A DNA stretch of 20,000 bases from an uncultured virus (IMG/VR IMGVR_UViG_3300009481_005157) (lineage: Duplodnaviria > Heunggongvirae > Uroviricota > Caudoviricetes). The translations under genes and the position numbers were made by a program. The stretch is taken from the IMG/VR virus record IMGVR_UViG_3300009481_005157; one strand, written 5' to 3'. The stretch's first letter is position 1. Every line of letters begins with the position of its first letter. The notes under the pieces were generated by a model, which worked only from the letters and a program-made list of their open reading frames with translations, made no database searches and was not told where the DNA came from. Of the stretch, positions 1 through 20,000 are shown one piece after another.

Positions 1-3000
1 AGCTTGCATTCCTTCAGTGATCGCTGCTTCCTTCTTCGCGTCGGCCACCTGCGTGCTTTCTTGTTGAGACGCATGTACATAAGTGGCCATATCATCTGCG
101 TATGCTCCTTCGGCCTTCTTCTCCTGTTCCTTTTTGGCCTGTTCTTGCTCTTGTTTTCTCGCGTCCAGTTCTGCCGGGATGGTTATATTCTGCTGGGAAG
201 CCGCACCGGCCATCGCGCCTGCCGCCTCTTCGTCTGACAACTCGCCTCCACCTCCGGATGCGCCCTGTTCTTCAGCCGATTGCTTGGCTCCTGAAGCCCC
301 ATCTGCTAGACCCTCTAGCTCATCACCAGACTTTTTGCCCCATTTGTCTATTTTCTGTAAAGCAATAACCGTTGCGATAGCAATAGCAACCATTGCTGTG
401 AAAGCACTGACAGCTCTCTCAGCGGCTATAGTGATATTTGCTTGAGCATCAGATGCTTCTAAGCTCTTGTCTCCAAACTGGGATATGATACCATTAAGGC
501 CAGCGATAGCTGCCGAGAAAATCATTAGGCTGTTGCCCAAGCCGCCCATCATGCCGCCAACCCCTCCACCAGCGTTGAGCCGTTGGACTGCGCCACCCTT
601 AGCAAACCCTTGCACGCCCTTTTTGTTCATGCGGTTGAGATTAGAGGCACCTATAGAGGCTGCCGCTTTCTTGTTAAGAACGAACTCGCCCGGAGTTAGA
701 AGGGCGGGTACAGTGTCAGAAGCCGCGCCACCAGAAGCGAACTTTTTTGCCCCCGGCGCCGGTTTGGCAGATTTAATGAACCTTTTGTCAATGAATCTGT
801 CATAGTTTTCACCATCCATCTCGCCTACGAACTTTTTGGCGATAGCTGTATACTCAGTACCCTTGGCCTCCGGTTTTCCGTCAGCAGCTCTGACGTTTTT
901 AGAAATTTCTCCATATAAAAGTTCAAGTCTATTTCTTGCATTTTTGTCGATATGTGGAAAGTCTAATCTCGCTCCTCCACCTGCAAGCGGAGCACCAGTC
1001 ACTTTACTTGTCAGACCTTCGTTAACATAGCCAGACACTGTGGCAACGGCGTCACTTTTTAGGCTTAGTAAATTATCCTCAAGAGATGTCTTAGCTTTTT
1101 CCTTGTCAACATAGATTTTATTGCTTTTTTTGGTAATTGCTTCAACTGCCTCAGAAGCAAAACTGTCGTCAATAGCTTTCCTTAAGCCGTCCGATGAGGC
1201 TTCCTTAACCGCTTTATTGACGGTGCTAGTGACCTTTGAGTCTCCGTCGCCAAGAATAAGCCCCCGAAGCTTGCCGTTGATACCGATCCTGATCGATTCA
1301 GCAATATCACTTTTCTCTAAGGTGGAGTCATCTATGGCTTTTTTTATTTCCGATTCCGCTTGTTGCTTGCCTACCTTATTTTGTTTTGCGAGATTATCTC
1401 GAAGCTTTGTGCTTATTTTACCACCCTTGATAATTGGTGACTTATCAGACATGTTGATCACGTTAGCGAAATTTGGGCCACCTGCTGTAATTAGCGCTTC
1501 TTGCTGCTTCGCACCCGTCATAGATCCGAGTGTAGCCTCTTTGGTTTGTGCGAGTTGCGGTTGAGCAACATTTGCCATTCCACGCAATTTGGCAATAGCT
1601 TTAGGGTTGGAGATATGACCAAAGGCAGTCTTTTCCTTTGCTACACCGCTTCTGTCATCACCCTCGCTTGGCCTTAAAAAGAATCCAGCCAACCTGTCAT
1701 CTTGAAGTTGTACAACTGCCCCGCCACTAGCATAGCCCTTGGCGTTCATCTTGGAGAGGTTATTGGTCCCAAGCTTTTTAACGCTACTCTTTCTTATTAC
1801 AAACTCGCCCGGTTGTAGCATCGCGGGCACAGTATCTCGACTTCCGGTGCCGGGTACCACACCTCCTCTTGCGAAAGCCATGATCTTGCCGCCTTGAGCC
1901 TTGCCCTGAACACCCTTGATCGCTGAACCAATGCCCCTGCCAAAACCTCCTATGGCTCCAGCAAACTTGAATGCCGCTAATCCAGCCAAGAGTGGCAACA
2001 GTGGTTTGAGGGCATCAGCAACAGAGATAAGAGCATTTGCCAAGTTAAGGGCGGTCTTGACCATAGCTTGAAAAGCAGTGGTTTCTGAAATGCTACGAAT
2101 TAATGCGAGAAACTCTTCTTTGGTTTTCTGTATCTGAACAGCGAGAGCCTGTTGCGCAGTAGCTGCGTCTTTATCTAAACTGGAGGCACCAGCTATGGCG
2201 GCTTGCCTAGCTCTTTCAGCAGTCTCAAATTCCTGCAAAAGAGGAATAACCTTACCAATTTGACGGAAGCCACCAAGCTCTTCAGCAATCTGAATAAACT
2301 TTAAATCACCAGCGGGAACATCCGCCAGAGCCTTGCTCAGTCTTTTTACAGCTTCAAACGGACCAACAAATTTACCGTTCAGGTCTGTGAGGTTAACACC
2401 TAGATCTTTAAGGTACTGAATGGTCGCAGGTCTTTGAATACGCGTAAGAATAGTACGCAAACCTGTAGCAATGGATTCTGCACTTTCACGAGTCGTAGCA
2501 CGAATAGATGTGAAAAGGCCCAAGAATTCATTGAGATCGCCACCAGCAGCTTTAAAGACACCACCAGTACGACGAATAGCACCAATAAGGTCGCCAGACT
2601 CAACAGCAAACTGGCCCGCAACGGCATTGATAGCACCAAGCTGATCTTTTAGCTTGCCAACTCCTTGCCCAAACTGAGCCAGAATAGCAACAGCACCTTC
2701 AGCGGTTTTATTGATGTCTTCAAAGGTAGGCGCAAGAGTAGTCTTAGCAAGAGCGTCTAAAGCAACCTTGAGATCATTCGCTTGGATACCGGCCTGAGCT
2801 AAGATTCTGGTAGCACCCAGAAGTTCCTTGGAAGAAGTGCCAAGGCTGGTAGCGAGGCGGGTTATCTCTTGATTTAGCCCCTTAAGGCTGGCAACACTTT
2901 TACCTGTCACCTGAGATATCTTGACAATCTCGCGCTGGAAGTCTATGGCTTCACTGGTAGCATTAGCCATAGTATTAGTAAACAGGCTGACAGCCCTACT

Positions 3001-3246
3001 AGCTACCGTGAATGCGGCGAACCGCTTCAACGCCAGCCCAAAGGATTTACCCATATTATGAGCTGCGCTGGTAGCTTGATTGGTAGCTGCCGTTACCTGT
3101 TTAATTTGCTTCGTGGCTTTTGTGGCACCAGTAACCTGTACAGGCACAGAAATACCCTTTAGCTGCGCCTGCATTTGCCGCACAACTTGCTGGGTATTGG
3201 TAGGTGCCTGTAGTTTTAATTGTGCAGTCAGTACAAATTTAGACAT
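1..3246 (-). CDS. Tape measure protein, TP901-like core, 3'-partial (>1082 aa)
   Basis: Hand translation from ATG at 3246 (MSKFVLTAQLKLQAPTNTQQVVRQMQAQLKG...) stays open to base 1, so the ORF track misses it. It has an Ala/Leu-rich helical TMP core (DFQREIVKISQVTG...LAQAG...NAVAGQFAVESGDL...TTRESAESIATGLRTILTRI...LGVNL), hydrophobic segments and two GG...DTVPAxLxPGEFV motifs typical of TMPs. It lies downstream of the tail-tube and chaperone-like genes. Confidence 0.92.
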   Translation of the reverse strand, partial: MSKFVLTAQLKLQAPTNTQQVVRQMQAQLKGISVPVQVTGATKATKQIKQVTAATNQATSAAHNMGKSFGLALKRFAAFTVASRAVSLFTNTMANATSEAIDFQREIVKISQVTGKSVASLKGLNQEITRLATSLGTSSKELLGATRILAQAGIQANDLKVALDALAKTTLAPTFEDINKTAEGAVAILAQFGQGVGKLKDQLGAINAVAGQFAVESGDLIGAIRRTGGVFKAAGGDLNEFLGLFTSIRATTRESAESIATGLRTILTRIQRPATIQYLKDLGVNLTDLNGKFVGPFEAVKRLSKALADVPAGDLKFIQIAEELGGFRQIGKVIPLLQEFETAERARQAAIAGASSLDKDAATAQQALAVQIQKTKEEFLALIRSISETTAFQAMVKTALNLANALISVADALKPLLPLLAGLAAFKFAGAIGGFGRGIGSAIKGVQGKAQGGKIMAFARGGVVPGTGSRDTVPAMLQPGEFVIRKSSVKKLGTNNLSKMNAKGYASGGAVVQLQDDRLAGFFLRPSEGDDRSGVAKEKTAFGHISNPKAIAKLRGMANVAQPQLAQTKEATLGSMTGAKQQEALITAGGPNFANVINMSDKSPIIKGGKISTKLRDNLAKQNKVGKQQAESEIKKAIDDSTLEKSDIAESIRIGINGKLRGLILGDGDSKVTSTVNKAVKEASSDGLRKAIDDSFASEAVEAITKKSNKIYVDKEKAKTSLEDNLLSLKSDAVATVSGYVNEGLTSKVTGAPLAGGGARLDFPHIDKNARNRLELLYGEISKNVRAADGKPEAKGTEYTAIAKKFVGEMDGENYDRFIDKRFIKSAKPAPGAKKFASGGAASDTVPALLTPGEFVLNKKAAASIGASNLNRMNKKGVQGFAKGGAVQRLNAGGGVGGMMGGLGNSLMIFSAAIAGLNGIISQFGDKSLEASDAQANITIAAERAVSAFTAMVAIAIATVIALQKIDKWGKKSGDELEGLADGASGAKQSAEEQGASGGGGELSDEEAAGAMAGAASQQNITIPAELDARKQEQEQAKKEQEKKAEGAYADDMATYVHASQQESTQVADAKKEAAITEGMQA
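592..741 (-). repeat. TMP internal module, copy 2 (FASGGAASDTVPALLTPGEFVLNKKAAASIGASNLNRMNKKGVQGFAKGG)
   Basis: Aligns to copy 1 at 1720-1875 at protein level. The DNA also shares aactcgcccgg. Confidence 0.9.
1720..1875 (-). repeat. TMP internal module, copy 1 (FARGGVVPGTGSRDTVPAMLQPGEFVIRKSSVKKLGTNNLSKMNAKGYASGG)
   Basis: Direct translation; aligns to copy 2 at 592-741. Confidence 0.9.
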
Positions 3247-9318: not shown

Positions 9319-12300
9319 TTAAACATTTATCATGGCTGCTGTTTGACGCTTCCACCTACTACCGTCGTAATACCAGAGGTAGTGCTGGTAGATGCAAACC
9401 ACGCCCACGGCGCGTTTAATCTCTTGACCGTTGGACAAGAAGAGTTGTCGTGAAGCGCCGGAATTGGCTGATGAGGCTGCGACGGGGAGTTGCAAGAACC
9501 CATGCGAATTAACAATGGTGTTAGTTTTTCCGGTATTGTCCGTCCCAGCCTGTATCTGGTCAGTGGTATCTGCGCTGGAGTGCATTTCCGTCTTGATATT
9601 TACCGTAGTGTTACTGGTAGCTGCTACATTGAGCATGTCACCATTAAAGTCGCTTACGCTAGATGGCGTTTTCCCTAGGCGGGTGTTGTCGCCATACGCA
9701 TAGAAGCTTTCACCCAAGGTGACTGTATATTCGTCCGGGGAAACGGGGGCGCTGCTGATCCAGTCTGTGCGGCCACGGGCATAGGCAGCTGACTCGGAAC
9801 TATGAATGATAACAATAGCTCTTTTAAGAGGTTTAATGTTACCAGCATGGGAACCTATAAACGTATTATATGAACCTGAACCCTCTTGACCAGCAGCATA
9901 TCCAAGAAAAATGTTATGTGTGTTACCCCAAGGGATATCAGAGCCGTGGCGTTGTCCAGCGTAACTACCAAGGTGTACACTGTTTTTTGTACCAGAAGAG
10001 TACGCGGTGGTGAATGCACCAATCGAGACATTATTTTCGGAACCAGAACTAGCAACGCCAGCAGACACGCCAATAAAGATGCCATCTTTCGTGCCTTGGG
10101 TTCCAGTTGCAGCATACTTACCAATAGAAACATCCTCGTGAGAGTCATAAGCTCCACGACCGGCGTTGTAGCCGATGGAAATAGTAGTGTCAGGCTGTTG
10201 GGCTTCTCTACCTGCGTCTGCACCAATAGCGATGTTATAGCCTTTAGAAAATTGTCTGTATCCAGCTCTTGAACCCAGATATATTTCGTGAACACCTCTT
10301 AGTGTAGAGGAGTTAATTCTGCCGCTAGATTCGTAACCGGCATCAACCCCCATCATATTGGCTTGATGCATACCGCTGGCACTATGACCGGCTTGCCACC
10401 CAATCGCGTTCACATATAATCCGCTGTGGGCATGGCCTGCACGATAGCCTATTAAGTTCATACCAACACAACCAGACTCTAATGCAGAGCCAGCTTCGTA
10501 GCCCATGAAGTTACTGTAGTCAGACCCACTAGATGCCGCACCGTTTCGATAGCCTATGCCATTTACAAAGGCTCCGCTGGCGTTGATTAGCGCACTGACC
10601 CCTATAGCATTACCGTAGGGTAGGTGGGATGAAAAAGCACCGGCGTTGTAACCAAGGAAGTTAGTGAAACTGACACCGCTAGAAGAACGTCCGGCTCCAT
10701 ACCCGATCATATTTGAATAAAAAACGCCACTAATTTGTGCTCCAGCGAGGCGCCCAAGCATGTTGGACCAATGCCCCTGAACTGCACCCGAACCCGCAGA
10801 ATGGCCTATGGCGTTCACACCGCCGATACCGTTTGCTCCGTGCAATGCGCTATTACCTATAAAGCAGTTCTGGTTGGCCGAAAAGGCTCCAAAAGCGGCA
10901 TTATCGCCAAAGCCAAAGTTATAAGCCATGCCGGAAGCTCTGACGGCGGTTCTGGCGCCAACAAAATGGTTCATGTGGAGGTTGTGCGATCCGCTACCGG
11001 TGTGCCAACCGATTAACGTGGTGGCCATCATATCCTTAGAGTCCATCCCGGCAGCATGACCTATAAAGGTACATCCGGAAGACTTAAAGCCTGACCCACC
11101 GGCATCACTACCGATAAATACGCCTTCATAGGTCTGATTGGAAGTCCCTCGCCAGTAACCTCGATTCGGACCAGCATTCGTACCAATTCTAACACCGTCA
11201 CGATACGGGAATATGAGATGACTCAATTGGCCAGAACCATTAATGTCCATATGTATGTCGTTGCCAACCTTAGTGAGGCCACTTCCCGCATTTAGTGTGA
11301 TGCCCGGAGAGCCGCTAGAGGAAACATGTTCCTGAACATATCTCACGACAGCTTTAGTGGTTGGCACGATAGAGTCTGAAAGCTGGGAAGCTCCATCGAT
11401 CCTTTCACCAGATGTCGCAATGGATGCTGGGTTGAGGTGGTGGTCTACAGACACCTTGCCAAATAGATCACCAGATAGCGCTATAAGTTGCTGATCATGC
11501 AACTTAGTGATGCCAGAGACAGCCGCTGCAACTCCAGAGACCTTCATGCCCGAAGCATTGATCATATTTGTGGAATTTGAGAATCTATTTGTGTAGTCCG
11601 AAACCAATAGGCCGGACAATGCGGTGGGATCGATTAATACGGTGTTTGACCCGGCATGATAACTTGTGTTAATACCGCTTACGCCGGAGATAATTATGGC
11701 TTCATCGCTACCAATCAGATCCGTAGGACCAACGCCGCTATCACTAACGCCCAGCTTAAAGCCATTGTAAGTTCCACCTCCGCTGCTTCCGCCAGCGGCG
11801 TCTACGTATGCTTTTACGGCGGATGCTGTTGGGATAAGCAAGTCGGTGTGATTGGTGGTAAGCCCCTCGGAGGCAGTAACAATGGTGGCCGCTTGGAAGT
11901 TGGATACGGTGAGGTTGCTTAACCTGTAATCAAAGACTCCGGACATGTGGTTGCCGGAAGCGTAGATTTCGTCTCTAAGGAAATTACCTGACAGCGAGAT
12001 TAGGCCGGAAGCCCTTTCGGATAATAGGTCACCGGAAGCATTTGTAAAGTTAAGGGCGAACCCTGATACTAGAACACCAGAGTCTACTATCTTATCCAGC
12101 AAGAAGTTGCCAGAGTTAATGACGGCCCCACTAACTCCGTCAATTTTGCCCTGAAGGACTCCAGAGAGAGCATCGGGGCTGACAATCAAGTTGTTGGTTG
12201 AGGGGATGTATTTTGTTACGATTCCACTAACACCACTTATAGTAAGCAGTTCGTTGCTACCTACTGCGTCTACGCTAGTACCCGGATGGTGGAATTTCCA

Positions 12301-14253
12301 GCCAGCATATCCTGCCGCTGAATTATTGATGGTATACTCAAGCACCCCAGATAAACCGGATGCATCAATGTTAAGCTCTAATACATTATTTGTTGTACCG
12401 CTACCATATACTGATATACCTTGAACACCACTAAAGCCTATTTCGTCTGCCTGATGAATAAGATCAGTAACATAGTTGCCGTCAGAACCGGCATTTCCAG
12501 AGTCGATTGCTCCGATTTTAAACATGTTGCCAATTGCAAACGTTTGGCCAGCTTCGAGAAGAGATAGTCCACTACCTGCTCTATAGGCACCGCTGACAGC
12601 AGAGCCATCATTGAATATCATGCCACTCGCAGTTATGCCAAGCTTTTCGTTATTTGATGTTGCTGCTGTCCATGTATTAGTAGCGTTACGCCAAGTCCAT
12701 TTCTTATCGCCTGTATCTACCGCTCCAGTTCCAGACGATCTTACTACGAGACCACCGTCGTCAACAAGGTGATCTGCGTTGGCGGAGGAATCATTGCCAC
12801 TAGTGGAAGCTAGCTCTAGTTGCTTATCCTGTATAGTAACATTAGTACTGTCGTTATACGTTGTGGTACCTTTAACAAAAAGATTACCGCTAACAGTTAC
12901 GTCATTACCAAAGTAGGAGTTTGTCCTAGCGAAAACGCCACCGCTAGAGTGTACACTACCGTTAAGGGTGGTGTATATATCGCCATCAATAAATACATTT
13001 CCGCTAACCCCAGCATTCCCATCGAAAACATCCAGAGTATAATTAGGAGCAGTTGTGCCTATACCCAATCTACCGCCAGTATATCTAAGGCGATCACTGT
13101 AAGTTATTACGCCGCTCTCTTTGTATAGGGAGATGGTTCCCTCTCCGAGTGTGGCTGGGTTGATGCCAACCATAGCTTTATCTTGAACGACATATAGGCT
13201 TGATAGGTCTGGAATATCTTCCAGTGTCAAGAATCTAAATGTTGGGTAATCTGGGCTACAGCCTGCATCTTCACATCCGCTAGGTGGGCCGGAATAGATC
13301 GTACCCTTTTCTTGTTTTAGTGAGCATATTCTTTCATTTACAATACCGCTCAAGTAGAATATAGCATTAGTACCTGTGGTACCATCAAGTTCATTTCTAA
13401 AGAAGGGTTCTAGCTGACGACCGCCGGAGGCTGTTTTTGTGTTGTCCTGCGGTAACGGCTGACCACCTGAGAAGTAGACGCCTGAACCTCCACCAAAAAA
13501 TCCAGAAGCTCTAACTTGAGAATAACCGCGATCTCCACCAACATCGATGGCGAACTGCGGATTTGTCTGCGATATACCTAGATTAGATCGCTCATCAGAC
13601 CACATCATATCAGCATCATAATTGAGAAGCTGTTCGCTACCCCAGAAGGCAACGCCACTAGTCTGTGGCTCTCTGTACCCACTTATGCCATACCCTGTAA
13701 ATACAGAATACTTGCCCGGATAGGTTACATAGACTTCTTTGATGCCAAAATCTGGGAAGTCAAAAGGCTGTCCCGAAGCTACATAGTTGACACCACTAAG
13801 GCCTGCTGGTTTTGCATGGCCATTGTGGTTATTTGGCATGTAGAATGTGACGCCGTGGTACCCAGAGAAGGTGTGGGTATGAACGCTGGTTGCCCCAGCC
13901 ACAGCCATAGCGGCAGACTTCGTTAGGTACAGCGGATAGAAATAGCCCTGCTGCCCCTTTGTGGGACCGCTAGCGCTGTCACCATTTAGGTAGTATGGTC
14001 CAGAATCGAGGGCTGAACTTCTTAGGGGGAATCTGGTAAGTTCGTTGTCAGATCCATTCTGTCGATACTCACCAGAACCAACCTCATAATTAGTACCGTC
14101 TGTCGCCGCATAGTAAACGACATCGCCATACTGATAATAATCCCCAAAGGGGCTAAAGCCCGCAAGCTCTCCATCGAGAACAAACGCTCCCTGCCCCTTG
14201 GTATGAGAAAGTTCTTTTATTCTGTCTGATAGTATAACTATGTCGGAGTTCAT
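9319..14253 (-). CDS. Large fibre/spike-like virion protein (1644 aa) with SG-rich shaft and YadA-head-like beta-roll repeats
   Basis: N-terminal DRIKE...GF...YY...EVGSG...LTR...KEVYVTYP phage structural domain; LGIGTTAPNYTLDV fibre motif; PTxxAVxxYV motifs; more than 20 (N)xx(I/L)GxxAG repeats of about 16-17 aa in the C-terminal third; ends LWYYDGSRWK. Confidence 0.8.
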   Translation of the reverse strand: MNSDIVILSDRIKELSHTKGQGAFVLDGELAGFSPFGDYYQYGDVVYYAATDGTNYEVGSGEYRQNGSDNELTRFPLRSSALDSGPYYLNGDSASGPTKGQQGYFYPLYLTKSAAMAVAGATSVHTHTFSGYHGVTFYMPNNHNGHAKPAGLSGVNYVASGQPFDFPDFGIKEVYVTYPGKYSVFTGYGISGYREPQTSGVAFWGSEQLLNYDADMMWSDERSNLGISQTNPQFAIDVGGDRGYSQVRASGFFGGGSGVYFSGGQPLPQDNTKTASGGRQLEPFFRNELDGTTGTNAIFYLSGIVNERICSLKQEKGTIYSGPPSGCEDAGCSPDYPTFRFLTLEDIPDLSSLYVVQDKAMVGINPATLGEGTISLYKESGVITYSDRLRYTGGRLGIGTTAPNYTLDVFDGNAGVSGNVFIDGDIYTTLNGSVHSSGGVFARTNSYFGNDVTVSGNLFVKGTTTYNDSTNVTIQDKQLELASTSGNDSSANADHLVDDGGLVVRSSGTGAVDTGDKKWTWRNATNTWTAATSNNEKLGITASGMIFNDGSAVSGAYRAGSGLSLLEAGQTFAIGNMFKIGAIDSGNAGSDGNYVTDLIHQADEIGFSGVQGISVYGSGTTNNVLELNIDASGLSGVLEYTINNSAAGYAGWKFHHPGTSVDAVGSNELLTISGVSGIVTKYIPSTNNLIVSPDALSGVLQGKIDGVSGAVINSGNFLLDKIVDSGVLVSGFALNFTNASGDLLSERASGLISLSGNFLRDEIYASGNHMSGVFDYRLSNLTVSNFQAATIVTASEGLTTNHTDLLIPTASAVKAYVDAAGGSSGGGTYNGFKLGVSDSGVGPTDLIGSDEAIIISGVSGINTSYHAGSNTVLIDPTALSGLLVSDYTNRFSNSTNMINASGMKVSGVAAAVSGITKLHDQQLIALSGDLFGKVSVDHHLNPASIATSGERIDGASQLSDSIVPTTKAVVRYVQEHVSSSGSPGITLNAGSGLTKVGNDIHMDINGSGQLSHLIFPYRDGVRIGTNAGPNRGYWRGTSNQTYEGVFIGSDAGGSGFKSSGCTFIGHAAGMDSKDMMATTLIGWHTGSGSHNLHMNHFVGARTAVRASGMAYNFGFGDNAAFGAFSANQNCFIGNSALHGANGIGGVNAIGHSAGSGAVQGHWSNMLGRLAGAQISGVFYSNMIGYGAGRSSSGVSFTNFLGYNAGAFSSHLPYGNAIGVSALINASGAFVNGIGYRNGAASSGSDYSNFMGYEAGSALESGCVGMNLIGYRAGHAHSGLYVNAIGWQAGHSASGMHQANMMGVDAGYESSGRINSSTLRGVHEIYLGSRAGYRQFSKGYNIAIGADAGREAQQPDTTISIGYNAGRGAYDSHEDVSIGKYAATGTQGTKDGIFIGVSAGVASSGSENNVSIGAFTTAYSSGTKNSVHLGSYAGQRHGSDIPWGNTHNIFLGYAAGQEGSGSYNTFIGSHAGNIKPLKRAIVIIHSSESAAYARGRTDWISSAPVSPDEYTVTLGESFYAYGDNTRLGKTPSSVSDFNGDMLNVAATSNTTVNIKTEMHSSADTTDQIQAGTDNTGKTNTIVNSHGFLQLPVAASSANSGASRQLFLSNGQEIKRAVGVVCIYQHYLWYYDGSRWKRQTAAMINV
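9841..11195 (-). repeat. Degenerate protein-level tandem repeats Nx(I/L/M)GxxAG in the fibre protein
   Basis: Examples: SNMLGRLAG, SNMIGYGAG, TNFLGYNAG, SNFMGYEAG, MNLIGYRAG, VNAIGWQAG, NIAIGADAG, NIFLGYAAG, NTFIGSHAG. Confidence 0.85.
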
Positions 14254-16822: not shown

Positions 16823-17860
16823 CTACCTATCTTCTGACTCTAATCTAATTATGTCCTCAATTACGGCTGTCTCCATTTTATCAGTAGGCTTTAATTTGAA
16901 AAAATCTTTTGCATTCGCATCTCTTCTGAATGTGGAGGCTCTATTTCTATGGCCTAGCACTTCTAGGGTGCAGAGTGTTCTTAGGCATTTTTTACATGTG
17001 GTGCAGTTGTATTGTTGGTCTTTATTGGTGTGACAGACTCTTAGGAAGTCTAGGCATCTGATATCATGTTTGGTTATAAATTTTACTTTATCCGTCCTGC
17101 TTAGGTCTCCATCATGCCTGATCTTGAAGAAGCTGGAAGAATAGTACTTGTCCAACCAGAAGTGAGAACCCCACCTGAAGTCATCATCCGATTTAAACGT
17201 GCTTGGTATCATGAAATGATTAAATGTATTTGAGAGGCAGTAGGCAACGTTGAATATACCTACACCGTGAAGATAATGCCCCCAGTCAAAACCCTCGCCA
17301 TGATTGACCTCCTTTTTAAGATCTGTCTCGCACAGTATTAACTTCTTACCATACAATCTAGATGCTTCCTCTAATTTTGCCAAAGTCTCGTCTAGCAGCG
17401 TGGTTAAATGTTTCCTGATATCAAAGCCTACTACAAATATAATGCTATCTATGGTGTCAATATTGGTGTAAAGCGTGTAAAAGCTATCTACCCCCATAGT
17501 AAACGATGCAAAACTCTTACTCTCTTTGACTTGCGATTCTAGCTCTGTAGAAGGAGCTTTAATCTCCAACTTAAAGTCCTTTCTGTTGTGCCATCTATTG
17601 AACGTGGATAATAAATTTTGTACATTCTCTAAAAATTTTGTATCGACCCCTACCTCCGTCTCAATGCTTCTTCCGGTAAGTATGCAGTGTGGTATGAATA
17701 CGCTGATTAACCCCTCCACCCCCGTGTATAGATTATCAATTCTTGATAAAAACTTATTTGTGAATGAGTGTTTTTGATCGTCATATAAGTACTCATACGT
17801 AATTTGGCTAGAGAACTTATTGGTTTTGACGATTGGTTTTAGTATCTGAATTTTACTCAC
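16823..17860 (-). CDS. PP-loop (adenine nucleotide alpha-hydrolase-like) enzyme with Cys4 motif, probably glycan-modifying (345 aa)
   Basis: FTMGVDSFYTL (variant of FSGGxDS), GFDI, WGSH, R..KV, and RVC-x9-CxxCxKCLRT. Confidence 0.65.
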   Translation of the reverse strand: MSKIQILKPIVKTNKFSSQITYEYLYDDQKHSFTNKFLSRIDNLYTGVEGLISVFIPHCILTGRSIETEVGVDTKFLENVQNLLSTFNRWHNRKDFKLEIKAPSTELESQVKESKSFASFTMGVDSFYTLYTNIDTIDSIIFVVGFDIRKHLTTLLDETLAKLEEASRLYGKKLILCETDLKKEVNHGEGFDWGHYLHGVGIFNVAYCLSNTFNHFMIPSTFKSDDDFRWGSHFWLDKYYSSSFFKIRHDGDLSRTDKVKFITKHDIRCLDFLRVCHTNKDQQYNCTTCKKCLRTLCTLEVLGHRNRASTFRRDANAKDFFKLKPTDKMETAVIEDIIRLESEDR

Positions 17861-18582
17861 TATACGCTTAACTCATCAGTATACAGACATCCAAGGGCTT
17901 CAAGGTATTCGTCAAACATAGTCTTGTTTTTGTGATAATATACGGGTAGCAAAGTGACATCTGCTTTCATGGCGATACCACAGATAGCAAAATGAAGCCT
18001 GTCCGTAGTGATGCGATTGAATTGTGCGGCATATTCCCAATACTCTTCTGGGGTATGGCAGAACGATGCTGGATCTTTTCTTTGTTCTCTTGGTATATAA
18101 ATAAATACGCTTTCATTGGTTCTTCTGAGGAATGTTTCATCGCCAGATTTTTTACAGTCTATTTCTGGGAAATCGAATCCTAGGGCTAGGTCAGGTATTA
18201 TTTCACCCTTTCCGATTATGTCCCTGCTCTTAGACTCCCTGAAAAATAATCTCTCAAAAGGTAACTCCTCTTTTCTGAATACCGATTGTGGTAACATCCA
18301 GCAGGGTATTCCAGATTGATACGCTTTTTTTCTTATAGCTTCACATTTTGGGTATCCTACATTACCTCCGGCAAAAAGTAATAGCTTATCGCAGGTGGGT
18401 ATTGGATTTTCGGCCAATGGATTTACTGTGAAGTGATCTACTCCAAATTCGTCACAAAGCTGTCTGGTAGCTAAGTATAGTAGATCGTCGCCAACGTTTC
18501 CTATTCCGTCCACTATTCCAACCCGAAGCCCCTTTAACTCGTCGAAAATTGGGGCGAACAGATTTATGTCAAGCAATCTCAC
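17860..18582 (-). CDS. Polysaccharide pyruvyl transferase-like protein (240 aa)
   Basis: GNVGDDLL, FAGGN, PQS, FRExxS, PDLA, TDRLHFAI and YHK motifs in the order seen in the PS_pyruv_trans family. Confidence 0.85.
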   Translation of the reverse strand: MRLLDINLFAPIFDELKGLRVGIVDGIGNVGDDLLYLATRQLCDEFGVDHFTVNPLAENPIPTCDKLLLFAGGNVGYPKCEAIRKKAYQSGIPCWMLPQSVFRKEELPFERLFFRESKSRDIIGKGEIIPDLALGFDFPEIDCKKSGDETFLRRTNESVFIYIPREQRKDPASFCHTPEEYWEYAAQFNRITTDRLHFAICGIAMKADVTLLPVYYHKNKTMFDEYLEALGCLYTDELSV

Positions 18583-19136
18583 TTTTCATATCCCCCTTCG
18601 TCGAAGTCGCTGTAATGCATATGATATATTATTTCTTTGTGTCTTTCGCTTAGTTTAAAATCGCTGTCGTCTGACTTGTTGCTGTGTGGAAATTCATACT
18701 CTTCGTTAAATAGAGATAAATCTCTAAGTTCCTGCTCTATGTTCTCAACCTTTATGAGTTTATCGTATCGGTAAAGTTTTGTGACTGGAAACTGTATCTG
18801 TTGCTTGGAATGAACGAGAAACCAGTGATCGAAATCGAGGTTGCTATCATATTTCAAATGCTCTTTCCATTGGCTAACCACTCTGGAGTAAGGATTTCTT
18901 ATTGGTAGTATTCTTGTGTATTCTGTAGCAGTTTCCGGAAGCCAGTTAGTATGTCCTAGAGATGGCAGGTGATCGAAACTCTTGGCGTCACCGTGAAAAT
19001 AAGGCACTGGTCCTTGCACAAAAATAAATTTTTCTTTTCCAGATATCCTATTACTAGTCAGGTAATTGGCGATTGAGGTGCTATAATTTTTAAAGGGTTG
19101 CCAAATTATAATCCTCTTTCCCTTATTAATTAACAT
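18579..19136 (-). CDS. Sulfotransferase family 2-like protein (185 aa)
   Basis: PFKNYSTSI (degenerate IPKTGxTS 5'-PSB), IRNPYSRVVSQW (3'-PB), IKVENI, PHSNKS and YSDF..GY. Confidence 0.75.
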   Translation of the reverse strand: MLINKGKRIIIWQPFKNYSTSIANYLTSNRISGKEKFIFVQGPVPYFHGDAKSFDHLPSLGHTNWLPETATEYTRILPIRNPYSRVVSQWKEHLKYDSNLDFDHWFLVHSKQQIQFPVTKLYRYDKLIKVENIEQELRDLSLFNEEYEFPHSNKSDDSDFKLSERHKEIIYHMHYSDFDEGGYEK

Positions 19137-19929
19137 AACTTTCCTTCCAGTTCGGTCTAAATCTCTCTATATGGGAATCCTGCGGTTCTGGTGGCGGCGG
19201 ATAAAGTATTGAATACTCTTGATTTACCAGTCTTTTTAACAGGTCTAATCTGTAACTAATCGGTTTAGATCCATTGAGGTGGATAAAATAAGCGTCCTCT
19301 ATCTTACTCCAAAAATCTGAATCAATAAACTCTAGGTTGTATCTCCAGTCTATCATTTCAAACTCGTCGTCTTCCAAGTTTAGCAGTAGGTAGTCCTGAT
19401 CAAAGCACCATCTTTTGGGATAAAATGAGGGTGGTTGTGAATATCTGTGCGCTAACCTTTTGGGGAACAACATAACACCCCCGTTCGGTTGAAGGTCTCT
19501 ATTGTTTTTAGCTAAATGCGGATATTCGTTTAAGGCTTTTTTTCTTTCCGATATTATACCTTTAAAAAGAGAGTCGTAAGAAGACTTAATTATGTTCCAC
19601 TCGTTGGCGAAGCAAACTTTATCCGATGCTAGCTCTTCATATATATTTGGGCAATCTTTTTTAACAACCACATCACAATCAAGGTACAATGTATGTTCGT
19701 ATTTTTCAATGACCTGTTTTAACCTGTACTTGTTGGACATCGGCCAGTCTGGAGCCTGATCTCCAGTTAGCTCTATATAATCGGCATTACATCTGCGAGC
19801 ATAGCCTAGTATATTATCTCTGGTAATGTCAAGCTGATCCATTGCCTCTTTATTTGCAGGTATAACACATATTGCTAAATCTGATTCTTTTTCAGGAAGC
19901 CTGTCAACCAGTTTTATTCGACAGGTCAT
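19126..19929 (-). CDS. GT-A glycosyltransferase (GT8/GT34-like, ~267 aa)
   Basis: YARRCNADY, NKY, YLDCD (DxD), NGGVML, DQDYL, YN and YFIHLNG. Start is either 19929 (ATGA overlap with the upstream gene) or 19938. Confidence 0.85.
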   Translation of the reverse strand: MTCRIKLVDRLPEKESDLAICVIPANKEAMDQLDITRDNILGYARRCNADYIELTGDQAPDWPMSNKYRLKQVIEKYEHTLYLDCDVVVKKDCPNIYEELASDKVCFANEWNIIKSSYDSLFKGIISERKKALNEYPHLAKNNRDLQPNGGVMLFPKRLAHRYSQPPSFYPKRWCFDQDYLLLNLEDDEFEMIDWRYNLEFIDSDFWSKIEDAYFIHLNGSKPISYRLDLLKRLVNQEYSILYPPPPEPQDSHIERFRPNWKESYVN

Positions 19930-20000
19930 CTGCTCCATTTTTTCTCCTCCGGGCAGACCACAAGCTTTCCGCTCTTCTCTCTTATTTTAGCCGCTTCGGG
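19926..20000 (-). CDS. C-terminal fragment of an upstream gene (...PEAAKIREKSGKLVVCPEEKKWSR*)
   Basis: Open frame from the window edge to a TGA that overlaps the GT ATG (ATGA). Only 24 aa are visible. Confidence 0.5.
   Translation of the reverse strand, partial: PEAAKIREKSGKLVVCPEEKKWSR

Follow-up and report, generated by a model that had tools for sequence, protein, structure and literature searches.

The tape measure gene and its slot

The left end of the window – the whole 20,000-nucleotide stretch of DNA analysed here – carries a minus-strand gene for a tape measure protein (TMP). Proteins of this kind are known to act as rulers and channel formers and to carry cell-wall enzymes. As full-length relatives of this one run to 2041–2651 aa, the window contains less than half of it. 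The features on which the discussion turns are the following:

1..3246, minus strand: TMP gene, first 1082 codons (ORF list, translation; 3′ end beyond the left window edge, no stop inside the window)
2311..2871, minus strand: PhageMin_Tail domain (PF10145), residues 126–312 (Pfam)
1723..1872, minus strand: first copy of the GG..DTVPAxLxPGEFV..K..G...L..MN motif, residues 459–508, left border of the slot (translation; phrog_35029 match at 459–508; regular-expression match at residue 471)
739..1719, minus strand: TMP-specific cassette, residues 510–836, 327 residues (homologues in TMPs only; alignments A1 and A2; AlphaFold)
811..1065, minus strand: 85-residue signature module, residues 728–812 (module HMM, conservation counts)
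592..735, minus strand: second copy of the motif, DTVPALLTPGEFV, residues 838–885, right border of the slot (translation, regular expression)

The initial annotation had named a TMP as the carrier of its proposed cargo, and this identity is upheld: the host protein is a member of PF10145, with a Pfam match at E 7e-24 and 85.2 bits against a cut-off of 33.2. The translation also matches eight TMP PHROGs, its N-terminus (MSKFVLTAQL) is the family consensus in an alignment with 21 full-length relatives, and the sources of the relatives label them TP901 family tape measure. In the translation, hydrophobic segments rich in glycine come after the second PGEFV motif, and a Pfam scan of 33 full-length relatives gave Gly-zipper matches further downstream in two of them.

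The motif that borders the slot takes the form (S/T/R)DTVPA(L/M)L(T/Q)PGEFV, followed by about 25 more residues. In related TMPs, its first copy lies at about residue 465 and the next copy 146–551 residues away; the content of the slot varies between 133 and 538 aa. The module ends 13–80 aa before the border motif in 37 of 51 TMPs, with a median of 27 aa. With its content so variable and the module usually close before the motif, the cassette behaves as a modular insert. A literature search on the PGEFV motif returned no phage-tail paper, judged by title, and no description of the slot-border motif.

The cassette begins with an N-terminal β meander (containing GFFLRP), continues with a variable helical insert (approximately residues 564–645), a β hairpin and four helices, and closes with the signature module. 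Within the latter, a G.hFE[GAS] helix is followed by a Gly-rich loop, the FDFP string, a helix, an h..(D/E)xK strand and a helix with a lysine. As judged from the alignments, residues 728–812 form the conserved core of a domain of about 330 residues (510–836) that is built into the slot of the TMP.

A conserved set of charged residues

What had drawn attention to this region was a stretch at 742..1065 (TMP residues 728–835, minus strand), in which the initial annotation discerned a PD-(D/E)xK nuclease-like motif. All four strings named there belong to the minus-strand reading frame of the ORF at 1..3246 – AVATVSGYVNEGLTSKVTG at residues 733–751, GARLDFP at 758–764, VRAADGKPEAK at 785–795 and YTAIAKKFV at 799–807 – and the codon coordinates given for E743, D762, D789-G-K791 and E793-A-K795 are all exact:

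1018..1020, minus strand: E743, in the middle of helix 732–750 (kept in 63/63 module copies)
961..963, minus strand: D762 of FDFP (kept in 62/63, one E; adjoins an isolated β bridge in the model)
874..882, minus strand: D789-G-K791, inside predicted strand 787–794 (alignments, AlphaFold model)
862..870, minus strand: E793-A-K795, an alternative ExK (varies freely among aligned cassettes)
832..834, minus strand: K805, in the helix after the DxK strand (kept in 60/63)

K805 was not singled out at the time, yet it falls within the YTAIAKKFV helix that was.

The bare E/D/(D/E)xK motif is at chance level. The regular expression E..D..[DE]xK matches 26% of the 108-residue windows of the TMP, compared with 29% (sd 10%) in shuffles (n = 200), so that conservation and structure must serve as the test.

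Two alignments were used for conservation: A1, with 23 cassette sequences, and A2, with the window piece and 21 full-length relatives. Their invariant or near-invariant columns are G739, E743, G744, T750, G751, A752, G756, D762, L774, D789, K791 and K805; the residue types are limited to G, E, T, A, D, L and K, with no His, Cys or Ser, which fits a carboxylate-plus-lysine chemistry. When A1 is joined by three IMG/VR loci (26 cassettes), the counts are 25/25 for E743 and for D762, 24/24 for D or E at 789, 24/25 for K791 and 24/24 for K805. The alternative E793-x-K795 is variable among the same 26 aligned cassettes, and this part of the original proposal falls away.

A profile of the module (residues 728–812) reached 38 tape measures in a first pass, and a module HMM taken through four rounds on 721 sequences reached 51 of 93 TMPs plus 16 loci; with four loci that duplicate a neighbouring locus left out, this makes 63 non-redundant module copies, whose identity to the copy in the window ranges from 13 to 77% (median 26%). 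E743 is present in all 63, D762 in 62 (the exception being an E) and K805 in 60. Position 789 holds D in 54 copies, E in seven, K in one and a gap in one (D or E in 61 of 63), while K791 is kept in 61, with one T and one gap; the residue between them may be A, G, V, I, L, T or F. The ordered, conserved E..D..(D/E)xK feature of the PD-(D/E)xK superfamily is present in this set, and the alternation of D and E at 789, next to a varied middle residue, resembles at the sequence level a (D/E)-h-K strand motif.

Conservation of the E/D/D/K residues in homologues, which had been put forward as a check on the idea, is thus near-absolute. Four of the six residues named earlier are among the five invariant charged positions, in a region with 27 D/E/K residues (P = 0.004 for a random pick). 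The caution that the resemblance might be due to chance holds for the bare motif and fails for its conservation, which across 63 copies goes far beyond chance. To judge from these counts, the E/D/(D/E)xK/K805 set is a genuine conserved site under strong constraint and, since the pattern is kept in some sixty distant relatives, the acid–acid–acid–lysine stretch is probably a working site.

Four TMPs with short slots (P0018, P0045, P0038 and P0019) lie beyond the reach of the HMM; FE..D..ExK strings, with a shorter spacing from D to ExK, can be made out in them by eye.

Distribution among tape measure proteins

Searches for relatives of the cassette led back to tape measure proteins. A word-indexed search with residues 520–900 returned 80 proteins, mostly through short-motif matches, whereas HMMER with residues 510–836 over 1.84 billion representatives gave 16 matches (nine of them below 1e-10), all TMP-length proteins or fragments. 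Looking for longer proteins with A1 yielded two, among results crowded by chance words, and a related-locus search with a single cassette protein as the query found no relative. Among cultured phages, 20 records were matched by tblastn, none spanning residues 547–1082. No stand-alone cassette homologue of 68–608 aa was found except for one fragment at the end of a 1.8-kb contig. A PDB sequence search with the whole TMP and with the A1 profile gave nothing relevant, and the ESM Atlas, searched without structure comparison, gave clusters that were all TMP-like or unnamed, scoring at most 0.85. Among the sequences searched, the signature module therefore appears to be confined to tape measure proteins.

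One relative with the same cassette, P0085, also has a DnaJ J-domain at residues 1506–1565 (Pfam, E 1.4e-18), which suggests that parts of such tape measures act in the cytoplasm.

Family and profile comparisons

Family libraries gave no support to a nuclease identity: the 23 cassette sequences, compared with Pfam, NCBIfam and PHROGs at E values up to 10 or 0.1, had no match to the cassette, nuclease or otherwise, and Pfam found no nuclease family in the 33 full-length relatives. For Mrr_cat (PF04471), this means that neither the 33 relatives nor, at E up to 10, the 23 cassettes had a Pfam match; for the RecB/Cas4-type PDDEXK_1 (PF12705), there was likewise no Pfam match, and hhalign gave P 0.24–0.49 with a profile of eight sequences. 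Weak single-member matches to HAN_nuclease (E 0.2) and ICEA (E 0.07, in P0059) are no better than chance and were set aside, as was the slot of P0031 and P0043 as another nuclease family, a resemblance seen by eye with no Pfam match.

For more sensitive comparison with hhalign, profiles were built from genome matches to Mrr_cat (31 sequences), YraN (16), VRR_NUC (2), Uma2 (14) and PDDEXK_1 (8), with Response_reg (17) and Thioredoxin (12) as controls, some rows of which may be antisense frames. Mrr_cat was the best of the seven families for the module profile, at P 0.027–0.035, the others lying at 0.24–0.67. At a permissive threshold, the module and Mrr_cat aligned collinearly, pairing FE with FE, FDF with GiD and DaK with QaK. 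The power of the method on these profiles was limited – among ten true nuclease–nuclease pairs, it detected only Mrr_cat with YraN (P 3e-5) – and its noise considerable, as the unrelated pair of Mrr_cat and Response_reg reached P 0.0014. The likeness of the module to Mrr_cat is suggestive in form and numerically within noise, that is, not significant.

In its layout, the module shares with the PD-(D/E)xK superfamily, and with Mrr_cat in particular, the order of a helix with E, then D, then a strand with (D/E)xK, then a helix; as in Mrr_cat, the helix starts with an FE dipeptide and the residue after the K is basic. Unlike Mrr_cat, it sits within a 327-residue domain with extra N-terminal strands, found in tape measures only, and it has no significant sequence or profile match and no fold match.

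Predicted structure

AlphaFold2, supplied with A1, predicted the cassette (510–836) with a mean pLDDT of 85.1 and a pTM of 0.74, the pLDDT being 84–94 over residues 730–830; adding 509 to the numbering of the model gives TMP residues. Its N-terminal part has four short strands, a variable helical insert (55–136) and a long hairpin (143–155). Four helices follow, the last of which (223–241) holds E234, corresponding to E743. After this E helix come a Gly-rich coil, a single bridge residue (254) adjoining D253, which corresponds to D762, and a helix (259–269). Strand 278–285 then holds D280-G-K282, helix 287–302 holds K296 (that is, K805), and a last strand spans 315–319. The order of elements in the model is α1 .. 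(D) .. β3–α2–β4.

The canonical restriction-endonuclease-like core is α-β-β-β-α-β. From this the model departs in that D762 stands on a lone bridge, no β1 comes after the E helix, and D and DxK are separated by a helix. The proposed order of helix with E, D, strand with DxK and helix is therefore reproduced in part: the E helix, the DxK strand and the next helix are there in the model, but the D does not head a real strand. Nor is a β-β-β meander seen in region 728–835 of the AlphaFold model. A second model, of residues 650–836 alone, lost its strands and had a pLDDT of 74, which shows that the sheet depends on the N-terminal strands.

Fold searches gave a similar answer. With the cassette model, Foldseek against the PDB returned unrelated chains at a best E of 0.44, and with the 650–836 model a best E of 2.0; BFVD, searched with the cassette model, gave a best E of 0.43. 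Six fold searches, among them Foldseek, VIA-align and BFVD, listed no restriction-endonuclease, lysozyme or other enzyme fold. AlphaFold followed by Foldseek had been the recommended route to a nuclease fold, and none is among the matches listed; these lists are saturated by helical hairpins, so that a weak core match could remain.

What the conserved site might be

The claim of an injected nuclease fares unevenly against this evidence: the conserved site and the tape measure as its carrier stand, whereas neither a nuclease family nor a restriction-endonuclease fold has come to light. Even so, three carboxylates and a lysine, D/E alternation on a strand and a near-invariant set free of His, Cys and Ser fit PD-(D/E)xK better than the alternatives. 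We therefore put forward, tentatively, that the invariant set is a PD-(D/E)xK-like, metal-dependent phosphodiesterase active site – a plausible reading, unproven, and one in which we place less than even confidence.

A doubtful but serious alternative is that the module is conserved without being catalytic, its charged residues keeping the domain together through a buried salt-bridge or ion-binding network. Its role could then lie in refolding after ejection, in docking to the tail tube, to chaperone or to hub proteins, or in binding to a host envelope or membrane protein. The distribution of the cassette agrees with this, as the 16 HMMER matches and the one fragment of stand-alone size, from the 1.8-kb contig, place it in TMPs only and always in the same slot, adjoining the PGEFV motif; the fold has no enzyme match, and the invariant G739, G744, G751 and G756 suggest tight packing. 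Yet five invariant charged residues at a median identity of 26% would be unusual for a purely structural role, and the alternation of D and E at 789 points to a need for a carboxylate as such. The span of slot lengths, too, implies that the cassette body answers to no fixed structural requirement, yet the signature persists.

Enzymes carried by tape measures are usually cell-envelope hydrolases. It is nonetheless unlikely that the cassette is a new peptidoglycan or polysaccharide hydrolase, with E743 and D762 as acid and base. Conserved aromatic residues beside D762 (FDFP) would suit such an enzyme, and no recognised cell-wall hydrolase occurs elsewhere in the TMP of the 33 relatives, which leaves that role unfilled. 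There are also parallels: the TMP-position protein of phage phiEcoM-GJ1 has an SLT domain, and PMC6116005 counts TMPs among the tail proteins with virion-associated lysin domains, citing TM4, T5 and phiIPLA35. On the other side, no lysozyme-like, SLT or peptidase family was matched in Pfam, nor such a fold in lists filled by helical hairpins; the invariant K791 and K805 are unexpected for a glycosidase; and E743 lies in the middle of a helix in the model. The resemblance to mycobacteriophage TM4, T5 pb2 and phiIPLA35, as presented in PMC6116005, lies in a catalytic-looking domain inside the tape measure that is delivered on ejection; the difference is that theirs are recognisably muralytic, whereas the cassette has no such family or fold and has two invariant lysines.

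Less probable by some way is a membrane-active element, in which the Gly-rich amphipathic E743 helix (SGF.FEG....TGA...GG) would insert into, or perturb, the host membrane when the TMP is expelled. Small and hydrophobic residues abound in this helix, glycine occupying positions 739, 744, 751 and 756; the Gly-rich segments after the second PGEFV motif and the downstream Gly-zipper matches in two relatives are in keeping with the idea, and a reference that PMC6116005 cites speaks in its title of fusogenic activity of the T5 tape measure. This would, however, leave the invariant D762, D/E789, K791 and K805 – all outside the helix – unaccounted for, and the model packs the helix into a confidently predicted globular domain. 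That the motif is a chance resemblance devoid of functional meaning is hardly credible, for although its bare pattern is as frequent in shuffles as in the TMP, near-absolute conservation and the coincidence of the named residues with the invariant ones contradict it.

A precedent in a tape measure position

For the nuclease reading, the closest parallel is found in Escherichia phage phiEcoM-GJ1 (EF460875), where a 1239-residue protein (ABR68774) occupies the TMP position, after the sheath, the tube and two small genes. Pfam identifies in it a YqaJ domain at 459–591 (E 3.8e-11, 43.9 bits against a threshold of 22) as well as the SLT domain mentioned above, at 1045–1149. YqaJ is a family of PD-(D/E)xK-type exonucleases. 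The protein thus has a nuclease-superfamily domain at a distance from the N-terminus similar to that of the slot here; unlike the cassette, which matches nothing, its YqaJ domain passes the Pfam threshold. It contains neither a PGEFV motif nor a match to the module HMM, which makes it an analogue with no detectable homology. As an analogy, it offers a checked precedent for a nuclease domain in a TMP-position protein. If the cassette, too, is a nuclease, this protein and the J-domain of P0085 would together cast the tape measure as a general carrier of enzymes with a cytoplasmic role.

A literature search combining tape measure with restriction endonuclease-like returned no paper on the subject, judged by title; in PMC6965579, a tape measure protein and a nuclease domain co-occur incidentally.

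How a tape measure nuclease would work

If the site is of the PD-(D/E)xK type, the three carboxylates (E743, D762 and D/E789) would hold Mg2+, and the lysine would activate water or position the phosphate. A folded domain has no place inside the tail tube, where the tape measure is extended; folding, and with it activity, would have to wait until the tape measure has been expelled ahead of the DNA. The expulsion would put a preformed nuclease – or, at the least, a module that binds nucleic acids – at the site of entry. The fold class, metal binding, nuclease activity, timing of folding and substrate are all things that we infer, and host DNA, RNA or defence systems as the target are pure conjecture. 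A nuclease adjoining the phage's own DNA would, moreover, need a way of sparing it, which counts against this reading.

The fullest version of the proposal is accordingly also its more doubtful one. It holds that the cassette might be a sequence-orphan branch of the restriction-endonuclease-like nucleases, confined to TMPs and housed in a standard slot between two DTVPAxLTPGEFV motifs, which would pass down the tail in an unfolded state, before the genome, and turn into an active nuclease just as the DNA enters.

Implications for tailed phages

Even if it is not a nuclease, the module defines a new domain family, found in at least 51 of 93 tape measures and represented in none of Pfam, NCBIfam and PHROGs. 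The slot that it occupies is modular, with a highly conserved motif as its border, and its five invariant charged residues offer a direct handle for mutagenesis. If it is a nuclease, many uncultured, largely marine phages would introduce a finished enzyme that cuts DNA or RNA into the cell along with the genome, before the expression of any phage gene – with a bearing on the shut-off of the host, defence and counter-defence, and the handling of DNA ends at entry.

Distribution of the PGEFV motif

The cassette of the tape measure protein (residues 510–836), which includes the putative nuclease-like signature, lies between two copies of a motif that reads (S/T/R)DTVPA(L/M)L(T/Q)PGEFV and continues for about 25 residues:

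1723–1872, minus strand: PGEFV motif, first copy
592–735, minus strand: PGEFV motif, second copy

Most of the 93 tape measure proteins compared carry one to three copies each. The back-translated motif pattern is matched, among the matches listed, by more than 143 stretches in IMG/VR and by more than 122 in prokaryote genomes, the latter including many from Nostoc and other cyanobacteria, from Burkholderiales and from others. A PDB search with the motif returned no match, and among the papers listed by a literature search for 'PGEFV' none concerns phages, judged by title.

Directly after the second copy, at residues ~890–965 (352–579, minus strand), there are a Gly/Met-rich stretch and two hydrophobic segments; the segments – from the translation, by eye – look membrane-spanning.

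The slot between motif copies

In related tape measure proteins (P0005–P0062), the first motif falls at about residue 465, and the distance to the next copy is 146–551 residues. One loose similarity cluster takes in 43 of the 50 slot sequences from these relatives. Judged from sequence comparison, the slot looks like a modular insert site in which a single domain occurs in longer and shorter forms.

Other genes in the window

Upstream of the tape measure gene lies a long open reading frame (ORF), and further along are three adjacent ones:

9319–14253, minus strand: 1644-residue ORF
17860–19938, minus strand: three ORFs matching polysaccharide pyruvyl transferase, sulfotransferase and (weakly) glycosyltransferase family 8

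The 1644-residue ORF has no match in Pfam or PHROG; of the 18 window ORFs scanned, 13 lack a Pfam match and 15 a PHROG match. Of the three adjacent ORFs, one matches polysaccharide pyruvyl transferase with an E-value of 1e-8 and another sulfotransferase with an E-value of 1e-5; the similarity of the third to glycosyltransferase family 8 is weak. By these similarities they are predicted sugar-modifying genes, and they share the orientation of the tail genes.

YqaJ, SLT and J-domains in other tape measure or tape-measure-position proteins

Escherichia phage phiEcoM-GJ1 (EF460875) encodes the following protein, which is labelled 'putative tail fiber' in its record and occupies the tape-measure position:

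18232–21951 of EF460875: 1239-residue protein with YqaJ and SLT domains

Outside the window, the 2651-residue tape measure protein P0085 – a relative that has the cassette in common with the window's protein – contains a Pfam DnaJ J-domain (residues 1506–1565, E = 1.4e-18). We know of no earlier description of a J-domain inside a tape measure protein; its presence in P0085 suggests that host Hsp70 is recruited at DNA entry.
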